A stretch of 64,000 bases of DNA. Source: Burkholderiales bacterium (GTDB lineage: Bacteria > Pseudomonadota > Gammaproteobacteria > Burkholderiales > SG8-39). Shown one piece after another: positions 1 through 6,000 of this stretch. Each line of letters opens with the position of its first letter. Position 1 is the stretch's first letter. A program made the position numbers. The DNA lies in the NCBI GenBank assembly GCA_035602335.1, contig DATNMK010000020.1:212-64211 (forward strand). Direction: 5' to 3'.

Positions 1-3000
1 CGCATTCTGTTCGATGCGCCCGACAGTCTGGTGTTCCGCGATTCCTATACGGAATACCCTCGGCGTTTCTACGAGCGGCTGCGCGCGCGCCTGCAATCCG
101 AATATCAGCCCACAGCGACCGAGCACGGCTGGCTGGTTCTCACGCCAATCGCGCGTACGACACAGTAGACAGCCAGCCGCACCCATGATCCTGCAGGAGT
201 TCCTGGACTCCATCTGGCTGCCGACCAAATCAGCCATCAAAGCGATTCTGCTTAAGTTCCTGGGGATGAAATTTTCCACGCTGTACCTCATCGCGCTGGG
301 GATAGCTTTGATTTGGCCAACCATCGCCAGGCGCAGTTTTCAGGCCAGTCCGTTTCCGGGCCAGGCCAACTCCACCGCCGGATCGTCCGCGGGCAATCGA
401 ACACTTCAAGGTCTGCTGCGGCCCGGGGGGTGGATATTCCTTGCCAGCTTTCTATCCTTCATTGCGTTCCTCTATATCGCATTCACTCTCAATGATCCGT
501 ACTTGTTGTGGAACATAGACGGAAAGCGCTTTGAATACCTTGTCCGGCAGCAGCACGTCTGGTTTCCCTTCTACTTCGGCTACACGAACGACTTCCTCCA
601 TTCGCTGGGCAATATCTGGTACCCGCTCAACATGAAACTGGATCCGGGTTTCTTGCTGGCGACGGATCCCAGCGACGGGAGTCTCGACAGACGGCTGAGC
701 TATCTCATCTTCTCGATGGAGCTCTATCTGTCCACCTTTCTCCTCGGTGTCTTGCTCCGCCAGGGCGTCGTGATTTCCTCGATAGCCGGCTGGGTCATCG
801 TATTGCTGGCAATGCCCTTCCAGGGACTTCCGGCCATCTATCCGGTATTGGCGATGGCCCCAAACTACCCGCTATCCCAGACCGTCCTCATGCTCTGTGT
901 CTTCAGGCTGACCGGCCGCTCCAGGGACCGCTATTCCGCGGCCCTCACGGTCGCCATCGCATTTCTGTTGGCCCATACCTCTCTCGCGCATCCCACGGCC
1001 ATCGTTCTGATGGCGCCGATCCTCCTGATCTTCTCTGCCAGCATTCTTGCGGCAAGCGACACTCGGCGTGAACTGATCGTCAAGCTCATCAGCGTTGTCG
1101 CGGTATGCGGGCTTCTTGCAATTCTTGGATTTCCAGGCTTTCTGAGCGGGATATTCCAGTACACGGCGCCCTACTACTTTTCATCTGAATTGTTCAATGA
1201 CCGCGCGTTCTACTACTTTGTTTCGATCGCCTTTCACCGGAATGACGCAGGATGGCTGCTGTTTTTGCTTGCTCTGATCGGAGCGGTATCGATCGCGCGG
1301 TTCGGAGGCAGATTTGAGCGGGCGTTTGCCGCCGGATTGCTGCTGGCAATGGCGCTCCTTATCGGAGCCGGCGCGTTTACGGTGGCCTACTACCAGTCGT
1401 GGCGTGGACCGTCGCCGATTTATTTTGAATTCTTCCTGTGGCCTATCTATGCAATTTTCGCGGCGGCGACATTTCGCGTGTTGTACTACTCGGGCTCGGT
1501 GCTTTTCCGCTGGGCGGTGGAGAGACTGCCCGCGGCGAAGGTAAGATTGAACGGCGTCCGCGCATTCCATGCGGTCGTCGTTGCCGCCCTGCTTTGCCTT
1601 CCGTGGGCGCTGCTGAAGCACTTGAATCCAGGCTTCGTGCAAACCTCCAACTCGCTTGGGCTCGTGAAACCGCCCGCCGAGACGGAAATCGTGTCCATGC
1701 TGCGAAAGGAAGTCGGGCTGCAGCCGGGCTCGCTATTCACGGGCCGGGTCGCGACGCTCACCGGACAGAACCTGGACAGGCCGGTGAATTGGCATGATCT
1801 GAACGGGCTGGACAGCGAGATTCTTTCGCACGGGGGAAACAGTCACCAGTCGACCGGTCTCTGGTGGTACGGCATCCCGACGTTGTTCGAATTGAGTTCG
1901 CTGATAACTCCGCCGTTCTTCCTGATTACCCGGGAATTCCTCGAGCGTCCGGGCGATCTGCAGATGAGGAACGCGATCCTGCTGCGGCAGTTCGATCCGC
2001 GGGTCCTGCGCGCGCTTGGAGTCCGCTTCGTGATCACGGACGCGCCGATCAAAGGGCGCGCCACCTTACGGGTTCGCCAGGAGATGCCGACTTCAACGAA
2101 GCACTATCTTTACGAGCTCAATGGTGTGAACCGTGGGGACTACTCGCCGACCAGGGTAGAGGCAATCCCGGACGTGACGAAGACGATCGCTGCGCTCAGC
2201 GACACCTCATTTGATTTTGCTCGTACCGCGATCGTGGAGACACCTCTGCAGGTCGAGCTGGTCCACGCCAAGTCCGGCCAGGTCCATGTCGAGCCGGGGT
2301 ATCTGCGGCTGAGCGCGACGAGCAAGGGGACCTCCCTGCTGGTGTTGCCGTTCGAGTTCAGCCACTGCCTGTCCCTGGAACCCTCGGGCGTTGACGCGGA
2401 CAAGGACGCCCGAATTCTCCGCGTGAATCTGCTGCAAGCGGGAATCTTGTTTACCCGTAAACTGGACGCGACGCTTACCTATTTCACCGGGCCGTTCCGC
2501 AATTCCGGATGCCGGATCGAGGACAGGAGGGATATGGACAGGCTCGGCATCCGCCAGTTCCACAAGGAAATCGTCTTGCCTCCTTCCCGGTTTCCGGGAC
2601 TTGAATAAGAACGGCCGAATGCATCTGACCATCATTTGTCCCGTATACAACGAGGCGAGCGTTGTTCCGCTTTTCTTTGCGCGCCTGGCGCCCGTCGTCA
2701 AGGCGCTATCGGCCCGCTACAAGGTGGACGTGCTCTTCCTCAACAACGCCTCCACCGACGGCACGATCGATGCCATCAGCGCCTTGCGAGCGGAAAATCC
2801 TTTCGTCTATGTCATCACTCTAAGCGCCAACGTCGGCTACCAGCGATCCATAGAATGCGGGCTGCGGAATGCCAAGGGCGACCTCATCACGTTCATCGAC
2901 GTGGACTGCGAGGATCCACCGGAGATGATCCCGCAGTTTGTGCAAGGCTTCGAGCAGGGTTACGACATCGTTTATGGTGAACGTGTCGCCCGGGAAGAGA

Positions 3001-6000
3001 ATCGCGTCATGGTCTGGTTGCGCAAGCTCTTTTATCGGGTCGTCTATTCGATAGCGGACGAGGACTTCATTCTCGACATGGCGGAGTTCGCCCTGCTCAG
3101 CGCCGAGGTGCGTGACGCGATCATCGTAGATCAGAGCTCTTTTCCATTCATACGCAGCTCCATTGCCAGAGTCGGCTTTAAGCGCCTCGGTATTCCATAT
3201 AAACGCCAGCGCAGAATTGGCGGCAGGACCCATTACAACTTCATGCAAATGACCATTTTTGCGGTCGCGGGTATCCTCGCGGCCTCCACTTTGGGGCTTC
3301 GCCTCCCCATCTATATTTTTCCGTTTTGGCTTGTCCTCACCGGCGTCCTTGGGGCCATTCAAATCCAGACGGGGAACCCATGGATTTTTCTCATGAACGT
3401 GCTGTTGGCATGTGCCTACGTCGGCGGTACGGTAGCTTTTGTCGCCCTGTACGTCGCCCGGACATACAAAAATGGTCTGGGGCGGCCGAATTACGTCATT
3501 CACAAGCGCTACAGCCACCTTCAAACTGACTAATTGCTCTCCGATGTCACCTCGAGCAACGTGGCCAGAGGCTCGATGCGGCATTTCAAGCTTCGACGGG
3601 GGAGTACGAGTACACGCAGTAGTGCAGCGTCCAGACCGCTATCGTTTCTGGGATGACGTGAAGTGCGAGCCGCGCATTGCGCGCGGCGCTGGGCTGTCCT
3701 ACGCGGCAGCAAGTTTTCGCGAGGGCGGACTGTCCATCGAACATACGTCATTCAACCGCGTACTGGATTTCGACAGCAAAGAGCACATGGTCGAGGTAGA
3801 AAGCGGTCTTTCGCTCGACGCGCTCCACAAATTCCTGATCTCGCGAGCGCTCTTTCTGAAAATTCAGCCCGGGTACGGCCGCATTACCATCGGTGGCTGT
3901 ATTGCAACCGATGCGCATGGCAAGAATCAGGCTCGTGACGGCACATTCATCAACCAAGTCGCGGGCTTGACGCTGTTTCATCCGGCACACGGCTTCATCG
4001 AGCTGGACGACAGCACTGAACCTAACCTGTTTCGGCTGACATGCGGTGGGTACGGCTTGACGGGCCACATCATCAAAGCGCGGCTTCGTGCAAGCCCGGT
4101 ACCGTCGAATACCGTTGAAGTAAGCATTGAACCTGCAACGGATGTCCGCTCCGGCGCCGAGCGGTTGAGAACCTTGGCGGCTGAAACGGATTTCGTCTAC
4201 TCTTGGCACGATTTCAGCGCCACCGGCGCCTCGTTTGGGAGGGGCTTTGTTTGCGCCGCGCGATTTGTACCGGATTCAGGCCCCCCGAACACTTCGCATG
4301 CCACGGGACGCGCGCTTTCGCTCTCGGCTGCCAGTCGCTCAGCCTGGCGCTTGCCGCTATTGAATCGGTGGACTGCCAGGGCATTGAACATTTCCTACCT
4401 AAAGAAGCAGCTATGGATCGGTAGACGCTCGTTGATAACCCTTCACAATGCGTTGTTTCCAGTACATACGAAGCAACTCTATTTCAAGCTGTTTGGCACC
4501 CCTGGCTTTCACGAATTCCAAGCGATCATTCCCATGGGGAACGTCGCCGAGTACGCCGAAGCGATACGCGATTATCTGATCCGCCGGCCGATCGCCATCA
4601 CACTCGCATCGGGGAAGATATTTCGAGGTCAGCCCGAGCTTCTCCGCTTCACGGGCGACGGTTTTTGTCTTGCGCTGAATTTTCCACGAACATCGGAGTC
4701 CGGGGACTTTCTGGAATTCTTGGACGGTTTGATCGTCTCGGTGGGAGGGGTCCCAAGCATCATCAAGGATTCCCGCATCTCTCATTCCGTAGTCGGGGCG
4801 AGCTATCCGGAGGCACATCGGTTTCGAGAAATACTTCGCGCGTTCGACCCAAACCGCTTGTTTCGCTCCGAGCTCTCGGACAGATTGCATATGTGAAAGC
4901 ATTGCTTGTAGGTGGTTCATCGGGCGTAGGCCGGGCGTTGAGCGAGGCATTGGCCGGGCGCGGCGACGCCTTGCTATTGGTAGCCAGCGACGCTCGTGAC
5001 CTTGAGCCGCAGGCGTCGCATCTGCGACTTGTGTACGGCGTCCAAGTTGAAATCGTCGCAGCCGACGCAACCCGCCCCGAAGAATTCCTCGGCAAGATTC
5101 TTTCCGCCAGCAGGAGTTTTGGTGTCATCCAGGGATTGTTCTTCCCGATCGGGGCTTCGGTGAACGGCGACTCCGGAACGCTGGCCATGGACGAAACACG
5201 ACAGCTCATCGACGCTAATCTTCTGAGTGTCATGGCAGTTGTCGGGCATTTCCTCCCGGAAATGCTGGCAGCAGACCACGGACACATCGTCGGTTTTGGA
5301 TCTGTCGCCGCTGTACGTGGCCGACGCACAAACGTGATTTATGCAGCTGCAAAGCGTGGATTGACGAGTTATTTCGAGAGCCTGCGCCATATCGCCGCCC
5401 AATCGAAGGTCCGTGTCCAGTTGTACCAGCTTGGCTACGTCGCGACCCAGCAGACCTACGGACGCAAGCTGCTATTTCAACCGGCGCACCCCGCTGACAT
5501 TGCAGCGGTAGTCGTTCAAAACCTCGATCGAGATATCGGAATGAGGTACCTGCCGCGCTATTGGGCCCTGATCGCCCGGCTGGTATCGGCCCTGCCATGG
5601 ATGATCTTCAAGCGAATGGATTTCTAAGGGTCAATTCCGTCCGCGCGATTTCAAGCACCAGATCTCCCACCCCCGATCCATCCCCCGCCTCTCGTACGAG
5701 GACGCAATCGCCGCCCGCAATCTGCCGTAGAACTTGCGATGGGAATCATAGCCGCTGAGCGGAGAACCCGGATCGTCGAACAGCGCGCACTCGGGGGCCA
5801 AGGAACCGAATGCGGATACCAGGCGATCGAAGTCCGAGATCAGGATCGAGTCGGAAAACGGGTCGCGCTGCGGCAGCGGCTGATTGACTCCGGTCAGCAG
5901 CGGCATCAAATACGAATCGGCGGTGAAGTAAAGAACCCGTTGCCGCCCCGAAGTCTCTCGAAGAGCGGCGCCCTTGTCGCGTTCGGCTTTCGCCAGCTCG

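Follow-up and report, generated by a model that had tools for sequence, protein, structure and literature searches.

The DNA considered here, called the window below, is a stretch of 64,000 nucleotides from a Burkholderiales bacterium (GenBank assembly GCA_035602335.1, contig DATNMK010000020.1, positions 212 to 64,211). Near its start lie three consecutive genes on the forward strand, encoding a GtrB-type glycosyltransferase of family 2 (GT2; 2619-3533), an oxidase dependent on flavin adenine dinucleotide (FAD) that resembles mycobacterial DprE1 (3544-4896), and a short-chain dehydrogenase/reductase (SDR) that resembles DprE2 (4893-5627). We think it probable that these genes form part of a GtrABC-like periplasmic glycosylation system with one additional feature: the oxidation and reduction of a polyprenyl-phosphate-linked sugar, made from a nucleoside diphosphate sugar (NDP-sugar), while it is still on its lipid carrier. 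A first-pass annotation of the same DNA had proposed such a GT2-fed epimerase module, and the idea has gained support from the grouping of the oxidase with DprE1, from 85 related loci in which no UbiA gene was detected, from the recurrent linkage of the oxidase to a GT2, and from the GT-C folds predicted for membrane proteins encoded nearby.

With regard to the oxidase, the product of 3544-4896 matches FAD_binding_4 (E = 3e-17) and contains the motifs ARGAGLSY, TIGGCIATDAHGKN, GGYGLTGHIIKA and IKDSR...FDPNRLFRSELSDRL. Its likeness to DprE1, first seen by eye, runs from end to end: residues 44-449 align with residues 51-459 of the DprE1 structures (E = 2.6e-34), giving the two-domain architecture of the vanillyl-alcohol-oxidase (VAO) type, and the NCBIfam DprE1 model is matched at positions 40-448 of 449 (E = 7.8e-60). 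The next VAO-family match in the PDB has an E value of 1e-11 and covers the FAD domain only (residues 43-210). Clustering with VAO-family members that act on soluble substrates, which had been named as an observation that would speak against the proposal, was not seen; the oxidase groups with DprE1, and other VAO families match it in the FAD domain only. Gene callers place the start of the oxidase earlier, yielding a protein of 474 amino acids.

How close is the active site to that of DprE1? The equivalents of H132, K134, Q336, K367 and K418, which we take from the DprE1 literature to be the catalytic or FAD-proximal residues of the Mycobacterium tuberculosis (Mtb) enzyme, are invariant in the window oxidase, in all 78 sequences of the GT2-linked group described below, and in the UbiA-linked group. 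Two pocket positions differ between the groups. Position 334 is E in 78 of 78 GT2-linked oxidases, whereas it is Q in all six UbiA-linked ones; position 415 is N in 74 of the 78 and S in the window protein, compared with Y in all six UbiA-linked enzymes. As far as residue identities can tell, pocket changes at 334 and 415 with the redox residues kept would fit the same chemistry performed on a different sugar. Position 387, which in DprE1 is the cysteine targeted by benzothiazinones, is Ala in the alignment, from which insensitivity to these inhibitors is predicted.

The SDR gene is tied to that of the oxidase in the most literal sense, because its GTG start overlaps the TGA stop of the oxidase by 4 nt (ATGTGA junction), and the two are thus translationally coupled. 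An overlap of this kind (GTGA, ATGA or TTGA) is found in 60 of 64 loci. The protein is a classical SDR of ~250 amino acids, placed directly after the oxidase as DprE2 would be, with the motifs GGSSGVGRA and YAAAK and an adh_short match at E = 6e-29. The DprE2 structure in the PDB matches it over its full length (3-241), as does the NCBIfam DprE2 model (NF053786; E = 2.7e-22, 12-251 of 252), so that the earlier assignment of this gene as DprE2-like, with its GTG start over the oxidase stop, stands. The top NCBIfam model is the uncharacterized PRK07102 (123 bits). In full-length blastp comparisons the window SDR scores 62-88 bits against the SDRs of UbiA-linked loci versus 46 bits against the FabG-like SDR of the window itself. 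A crude hydropathy scan detected no N-terminal hydrophobic segment, such as a signal peptide or anchor, on the oxidase or the SDR, and we therefore assign the redox steps to the cytoplasmic face.

The third member of the core, the GT2, is a predicted polyprenyl-phosphate sugar synthase of the GtrB/ArnC type (Pfam Glycos_transf_2, E = 2.7e-25). Its best solved relatives are GtrB sll0501 (5ekp), with residues 2-295 of the query aligned to 27-327 of GtrB at E = 7e-33, and ArnC. Since the match spans residues 2-295, it includes the juxtamembrane and C-terminal transmembrane helices, and a hydropathy scan places the C-terminal hydrophobic helices at 208-272. The protein therefore has the GT-A domain, DxD-type motif, juxtamembrane region and two C-terminal transmembrane helices of the GtrB/ArnC/DPM1 architecture, in agreement with what had been read from its motifs PVYNE and DVDCEDPP, both of which are present in 2619-3533. 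DVDCEDPP aligns with DADLQDPP of GtrB and is near-invariant among the oxidase-linked homologues. In all 38 oxidase-linked GT2 proteins, Glu (in MAEF) replaces the Asp of the GtrB GDF motif, a conservative change; this Asp is reportedly the proposed catalytic base in GtrB.

In the mycobacterial pathway the lipid-linked substrate is made by a UbiA-type transferase, so the question of whether such an enzyme is present is central. Among the ~70 window open reading frames (ORFs) scanned there is no UbiA match in Pfam, and a profile hidden Markov model (HMM) for DPPRS-type UbiA proteins has no match with E<=1 among the window ORFs of >=90 amino acids. The claim that the 64 kb carry no UbiA-type ORF is thereby borne out, and 85 related loci likewise show no match to this HMM within 10 kb of the oxidase; in a leave-one-out control the HMM recovered every left-out seed at E<=1e-49. 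Other canonical partners are likewise missing among the window ORFs scanned, with no match to GtrA_DPMS_TM, in whose stead there is an LPG_synthase_TM protein, and none to MatE. Across the 85 related loci a GtrA HMM gives one marginal match.

The situation is different in loci found by tblastn against plasmids, where homologues share 26-31% identity. In all five annotated plasmid loci (Rhizobium leguminosarum, Cereibacter, Flammeovirgaceae bacterium, Burkholderia stagnalis and Agrobacterium) a UbiA-family gene, annotated as "UbiA family prenyltransferase" or "decaprenyl-phosphate phosphoribosyltransferase", lies beside the oxidase and SDR genes, either directly or with one small gene (e.g., GtrA) between; genes for GtrA and for hypothetical membrane proteins often lie close by. 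Plasmid loci L086-L091 (our numbering) are examples of the type, based on phosphoribosyl pyrophosphate (PRPP), of Kelly et al. 2024 (PMC11127046). Two of them, from B. stagnalis (L090:9940-12699) and Agrobacterium (L091:9947-12585), have UbiA, oxidase and SDR genes followed by a second SDR/epimerase gene and an NAD(P)/FAD-dependent oxidoreductase gene, and then GtrA; the extra enzymes may carry out further on-lipid tailoring of the pentofuranose.

Neighbor-joining of the oxidases separates the 78 GT2-linked sequences from the six UbiA-linked ones (five plasmid sequences and Mtb DprE1) in 300/300 bootstraps with Poisson distances, while a run with Kimura distances gave 198/200 with a numerical warning. 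On average, sequences share 40% identity inside either group and 27% across the two. By these comparisons, the clade of the window oxidase is a large sister clade to canonical DprE1.

That the GT2 is a true partner, and not a chance neighbor, is argued by its recurrence. Homologues of the oxidase are numerous, at 48-82% identity. Family-specific peptide patterns were run against the genomes of 185,579 species, one genome for each, and this gave 411 loci with a gene for an oxidase relative, the closest being 62% identical to the window protein, and the best 80 of the 411 were kept. With three contig look-ups and the window added, and duplicates and incomplete oxidase ORFs removed, 78 non-redundant loci resulted, which were classified by ad hoc HMMs and ORF calls. 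Among the best 80, carriers come from Proteobacteria, Acidobacteriota, Verrucomicrobiota, Planctomycetota and Melainabacteria/Obscuribacterales, together with Pseudobdellovibrio and with metagenome-assembled genomes (MAGs) assigned to Uhrbacteria (of the candidate phyla radiation, CPR), Prolixibacteraceae (Bacteroidota) and, in one case, Streptomycetaceae, so that the clade is present in at least eight phyla. Genomes with the module include CP064963.1 (Melainabacteria), OZ252054.1 (Nitrosomonadaceae), Bradyrhizobium sp. WSM1253 and Azospirillum brasilense ATCC 49958, and some of the carriers (Bradyrhizobium, A. brasilense) are in culture.

A GT2 adjoins the oxidase in 63 of these 78 loci, and it is of one of two kinds. 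The GtrB type occurs in 36, almost always immediately upstream and usually with the ORFs overlapping or abutting. For example, three contexts from alpha-, beta- and gammaproteobacteria share the order membrane protein, GT2 (~315 amino acids), oxidase, SDR (244 amino acids); all three lie among O-antigen genes with giant WsaF-type glycosyltransferases, two have Wzt or Wzm/Wzt, and in two an LPG_synthase_TM gene and another membrane protein gene come directly after the SDR. The second kind is a short soluble GT2 of ~245 amino acids, found in the other 27 loci, which we call clade B (e.g., L042, L058, L069 at L069:8979-13441, and ~24 others). There the order, confirmed with Pfam, is large membrane protein, LPG_synthase_TM, oxidase, SDR, short GT2. 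A class-I methyltransferase gene often comes after the short GT2 (14 of the 27), which hints at methylation of the lipid-linked sugar.

Of the 63 GT2-linked loci, 28 have an LPG_synthase_TM gene no more than 10 kb from the oxidase; such a gene stands directly after the SDR in L001, L003, L008, L014 and L021, and ahead of the oxidase in clade B. A census of the genes on either side adds PMT_2 and YfhO GT-C genes adjoining the module in other loci, and no UbiA. Profile-profile comparison detected no relationship between the window membrane proteins and those conserved on the flanks of the module in L001, L003 and L005. Judged from sequence, then, the GT-C partners differ between loci.

The next question is which proteins in the window could move and use the lipid-linked product. 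The LPG_synthase_TM protein of the window (17797-18720, forward strand; E = 3e-37) is MprF-like, carries the TIGR00374 flippase-like domain (E = 5e-16) and is a candidate flippase for a lipid-linked sugar. Its stop abuts the ATG of the following gene, which encodes a large membrane protein with a predicted GT-C fold (18721-20925, forward strand). The AlphaFold2 model of this protein has a predicted local distance difference test score (pLDDT) of 88.2 and a predicted template modeling score (pTM) of 0.88, and in Foldseek it matches AftD (6wby, E = 3.7e-6), AglB, PglB, AftA and EmbA/B. A second GT-C-fold protein, of another family, is encoded on the reverse strand at 5631-7853, convergent with the SDR gene; its model (pLDDT 84.6, pTM 0.86) matches ArnT (5ezm, E = 5e-5), AftA, DPY19, STT3 and PglB. 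For both models, the significant Foldseek matches (E<=0.001) are GT-C enzymes only.

Two further proteins are paralogues of the 18721-20925 product by blastp. The first, directly upstream of the GT2 (14-2608, forward strand), is 32% identical to it over 575 amino acids (E = 1e-77) and has ~9 hydrophobic segments; its frame is open back to base 2, and the ORF may be cut at its 5' side by the window edge. The other (22447-24864, reverse strand) matches 18721-20925 at E = 2e-34 and 14-2608 at E = 2e-38. The 5631-7853 protein is unrelated to this family of three. Thus, the polytopic proteins around the trio, which had been proposed to receive its product, do include two GT-C folds by modeling and two paralogues of one of them, and only the bounds given for two of the ORFs had to be changed (185-2608 starts at 14, and 5631-7721 ends at 7853). 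None of the four has a match in PDB sequence, Pfam or NCBIfam searches, and the fold is seen by structure prediction only. Asp56-Gly57 is invariant across 24 aligned sequences of the 18721-20925 family, including the two window paralogues. Homologues are scarce: a word-indexed search among 5.8 billion proteins gave 24 for the 18721-20925 family and 26 for the 5631-7853 family.

The distribution of these homologues also says something about how the system is put together. Homologues of both GT-C families are present in other Wzm/Wzt loci, and none of the four such loci examined carries the oxidase/SDR pair. Three of the four have a GT2 and an LPG_synthase_TM gene, while L095 has only an Ank-GT2. 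Because the GT-C enzymes occur without the pair, the base system would consist of GT2, MprF-like flippase and GT-C, an analogue of GtrABC, with the oxidase and SDR as an optional insert; such an insert fits a pair that acts on the GT2 product before export. The joint presence of GT2, LPG_synthase_TM and GT-C without the oxidase in L092-L094 suggests in its own right that the MprF-like protein is the flippase of a three-component system lacking GtrA.

From these elements a route can be sketched. By homology, the GtrB-type GT2 would move a sugar from its nucleotide carrier to undecaprenyl phosphate on the cytoplasmic side of the inner membrane. The DprE1-like flavoenzyme would then oxidize one secondary hydroxyl of the lipid-linked sugar to a ketone, the choice of C2 being by analogy only, and the DprE2-like SDR would use NAD(P)H to reduce this ketone from the opposite face, yielding the epimer with no need for a nucleotide-activated precursor of it. 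The product would presumably be flipped by the MprF-like protein encoded at 17797-18720, and at least one of the four GT-C enzymes may add the sugar to the O-polysaccharide exported by Wzm/Wzt or to another envelope acceptor.

Are there other explanations? One would be the standard D-arabinofuranose (D-Araf) route, in which a UbiA enzyme encoded elsewhere makes undecaprenyl-phosphate-ribose from PRPP, the oxidase and SDR convert it to undecaprenyl-phosphate-arabinofuranose, and the GT2 makes some other donor. Both redox enzymes are indeed full-length homologues of DprE1 and DprE2 with the catalytic residues kept, one GT-C has the arabinofuranosyltransferases AftD, AftA and Emb as its best Foldseek matches, and four GT-C enzymes against one GT2 leave room for a second donor; moreover, some members of the clade have no linked GT2, and 64 kb of the genome are in view. 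However, UbiA is within 10 kb of the oxidase in none of the 85 loci, as opposed to beside it in every one of the five canonical loci on plasmids. Linkage to a GT2 is seen repeatedly, with two subfamilies of that enzyme and in two gene orders, and the clade splits from the UbiA-linked one in every Poisson bootstrap, with differences at pocket positions 334 and 415. We consider this route quite unlikely here.

Somewhat less remote, though still unlikely in our view, is that the GT2 product is indeed the substrate of the pair, which turns it into something other than a simple 2-epimer (for instance a C3 or C4 epimer, or a stable keto sugar where the SDR is missing), or that the substrate is a different glycolipid or the completed polymer and not a polyprenyl-phosphate-linked monosaccharide. 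The pocket residues that differ from DprE1 would agree with this, as would the Obscuribacterales loci with GT2 and oxidase and no adjacent SDR, and the clade-B methyltransferase hints at more on-lipid tailoring. Against it, C2 of a lipid-linked sugar is where the sole characterized members of this enzyme family act, the near-universal translational coupling of the two genes argues for coupled oxidation and reduction, and the lack of an N-terminal hydrophobic segment on either enzyme makes a periplasmic polymer an unlikely substrate. Finally, the three genes could be neighbors by chance in a mosaic O-antigen island, with the oxidase/SDR pair serving soluble metabolism. The locus does look mosaic in its GC content and in a possible methyltransferase fragment (both described below), but the linkage is met again in Proteobacteria, Acidobacteriota, Verrucomicrobiota, Planctomycetota, Melainabacteria, the Streptomycetaceae MAG and others, and every ORF is intact, its catalytic residues conserved; chance adjacency is thus very improbable.

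The reading that we prefer, on-lipid epimerization of a sugar loaded by the GT2, has to carry some weight on the other side as well. The oxidase reaches 203.3 bits where the DprE1 equivalog cut-off is 500, and is thus a homologue and not an equivalog; the SDR, at 79.6 bits, likewise falls below the 250-bit cut-off for DprE2. The phylogeny compares the clade with six UbiA-linked sequences by a single tree-building method, and the species scan samples one genome per species through peptide patterns. In 15 of the 78 loci, including a nine-locus Lysobacterales clade, no strong GT2 is found within 10 kb, so that the partner need not be linked, and nine Obscuribacterales loci have no adjacent SDR. 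The neighborhood census detected no consistent nucleotide-sugar gene and hence no pointer to the donor sugar. In the window itself, the flippase-like gene is 12 kb away from the trio, a single GT2 would need to serve four GT-C enzymes, and, since homologues of these occur without the oxidase and SDR, not all four need use the epimerized donor.

Some of these divergent loci have features of their own. The Lysobacterales loci, a clade within the GT2-linked superclade that has oxidase and SDR and neither GT2 nor UbiA within 10 kb, are L068, L073, L074, L077, L079, L081 and L083-L085, from Dokdonella and Rhodanobacter; a Na+/H+ exchanger gene lies upstream in L085. In the SDR-less loci of Obscuribacterales/Melainabacteria (L044, L047, L048, L050, L054, L055, L061, L063 and L065) the GtrB-type GT2 and oxidase genes are adjacent, and two small CheW-domain ORFs come after the oxidase; here the gene for the reductase may lie at another place in the genome, or the pathway may end with a keto sugar.

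As for the identity of the sugar, a few other clues were sought. Only 14 of the 36 GtrB-type loci also contain C-methyl deoxyhexose genes, UDP-galactopyranose mutase (GLF) is not among the 25 most frequent neighbor families listed, and the literature on 3-C-methyl O antigens provided no lead. In the window, an operon of nucleotide-sugar genes (10200-16799, reverse strand; assigned with Pfam) encodes a nucleotidyltransferase, a 4,6-dehydratase, a 3,5-epimerase, a C-methyltransferase (Methyltransf_13/14) and a thiamine pyrophosphate-dependent E1 alpha/beta pair (E1_dh and Transketolase_C). It looks like a pathway to a C-branched deoxyhexose with a methyl and a two-carbon branch, or to two branched sugars. 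A gene set of this type adjoins the homologue of the 5631-type GT-C in L095.

The remaining genes of this part of the window are those of an O-antigen locus. Wzm (7870-8676; ABC2_membrane, E = 3e-18) and Wzt (8677-9396; ABC_tran, E = 6.5e-21), both on the forward strand, form an O-antigen ABC exporter that probably exports the acceptor polymer. They are followed on the reverse strand by a gene resembling RMNT_CmcI rhamnosyl O-methyltransferases (9442-10203, E = 4e-73). A forward-strand ORF at 9415-10323 (302 amino acids, no family match), which this gene overlaps on the opposite strand, is probably spurious. A reverse-strand ORF of 134 amino acids (16976-17380), located in the gap that separates the sugar operon from the flippase gene, matches only positions 89-173 of 173 of an FkbM methyltransferase profile, i.e., the C-terminal half, and may be a truncated or frameshifted pseudogene. 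From ~28 kb onward there are lipopolysaccharide (LPS)-core genes, rmlBCD and housekeeping genes, by which the organism is recognized as a diderm bacterium. The O-antigen region (1-25500) has a GC content of 0.60, versus 0.64 in 25501-64000, consistent with horizontal acquisition of the locus. Two other reverse- and forward-strand genes, one for a MazF/PemK-type toxin (37431-37961, reverse, between the rml genes and a WecA-like gene) and one for an EVE-domain protein (51193-51651, forward, beside hemE), are unrelated to the module.

It is useful to set the predicted system beside those already known. The mycobacterial decaprenyl-phosphate-arabinose pathway comprises UbiA/Rv3806c, Rv3807c, DprE1, DprE2, Rv3789 and the Emb/Aft GT-C enzymes. 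The window shares with it the homologous FAD oxidase and SDR and, by prediction, a sugar carried on polyprenyl phosphate and a product used by extracytoplasmic GT-C enzymes on a polymer exported by a Wzm/Wzt-type transporter. It differs in that the lipid substrate is predicted to come from an NDP-sugar via a GT2, and not from PRPP via a UbiA-type transferase and a phosphatase; in that the oxidase belongs to a separate clade, with 27% identity to the canonical one, E at 334 and N or S at 415; and in that the candidate flippase is MprF-like instead of GtrA/SMR-type.

A second kinship is with the systems in which an undecaprenyl-phosphate-sugar made from a UDP-sugar is flipped by a small membrane protein and added to the O antigen by a GT-C, namely GtrA/GtrB/Gtr* O-antigen glucosylation and Klebsiella gmlABC. 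The GtrB-type GT2, a membrane flippase and a periplasmic GT-C are, by prediction, common to both, and in the window GT-C-fold transferases are indeed encoded with the GT2, as judged from models with pLDDT of 85-88. Unlike the Gtr systems, the window has no GtrA but an LPG_synthase_TM protein in its place, an oxidase/SDR pair that would act between synthesis and flipping, and several GT-C enzymes, not one. The ArnC/ArnD/ArnEF/ArnT system for lipid A aminoarabinose and LgmABC resemble the window in another respect, since there, too, a sugar is edited between its GtrB-type loading on undecaprenyl phosphate and its use by a GT-C; however, the editing is hydrolytic (deformylation or deacetylation) and not a redox epimerization.

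On-lipid conversion of ribose to xylose uses a single SDR; this conversion and that of ribose to arabinose both start from PRPP. To our knowledge, redox epimerization on the lipid is known only for the latter, by DprE1/E2. A conceptual precedent is provided by the PRPP-based pentofuranose systems and by the D-Araf modification of Pseudomonas aeruginosa pilin (TfpW locus), which have an optional cytoplasmic epimerase acting on a lipid-linked donor; the former also share periplasmic postpolymerization glycosylation in ABC-transporter O-antigen loci (PMC11127046). For these systems, Kelly et al. 2024 (PMC11127046) demonstrated the concept of an "auxiliary epimerase" with PRPP-derived pentofuranoses, reported DprE1/E2 homologues for Araf-containing glycans, and stated that they were aware of no further epimerases in systems for O-antigen side chains. 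The PRPP-based systems use a UbiA-type polyprenyl-phosphoribose synthase, a MATE flippase and GT136, whereas neither UbiA nor MatE was found among the window ORFs scanned. In the open literature, to which the search was confined (subscription-only papers being outside its scope), no paper was found that pairs a GtrB-type GT2 with DprE1/E2 homologues. In short, the parts and their logic are known, from the three-component Gtr and Arn systems and from DprE1/E2 epimerization; the combination, the enzyme clade and the MprF-like candidate flippase are not known to have been described.

Taken at its broadest, the module would represent an undescribed pathway, present in at least eight phyla, to a surface sugar without a nucleotide-activated precursor, made up of GT2 loading of a common sugar, epimerization by the DprE1/DprE2 sister clade, flipping by an MprF-like protein, and transfer by GT-C families outside the Pfam and NCBIfam models. 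In the present bacterium, the four GT-C enzymes might build a periplasmic oligomer on a backbone exported by Wzm/Wzt, a Gram-negative counterpart of the assembly of mycobacterial arabinogalactan. This wider picture is plausible, and we put it forward tentatively.

DprE1/E2 are a leading tuberculosis drug target. If a GT2-fed version exists, epimerization on the lipid would be a general means of diversifying envelope sugars, hexoses and deoxyhexoses included, and it would explain O-antigen residues for which there is no nucleotide-sugar pathway. A systematic error of annotation would be put right as well, as homologues of the oxidase carry the JGI name "decaprenylphospho-beta-D-ribofuranose 2-oxidase", which would wrongly predict arabinofuranose. 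Beyond the chemistry, the locus offers an MprF-like protein as a candidate flippase for polyprenyl-phosphate sugars, new GT-C families, and parts for glycoengineering.

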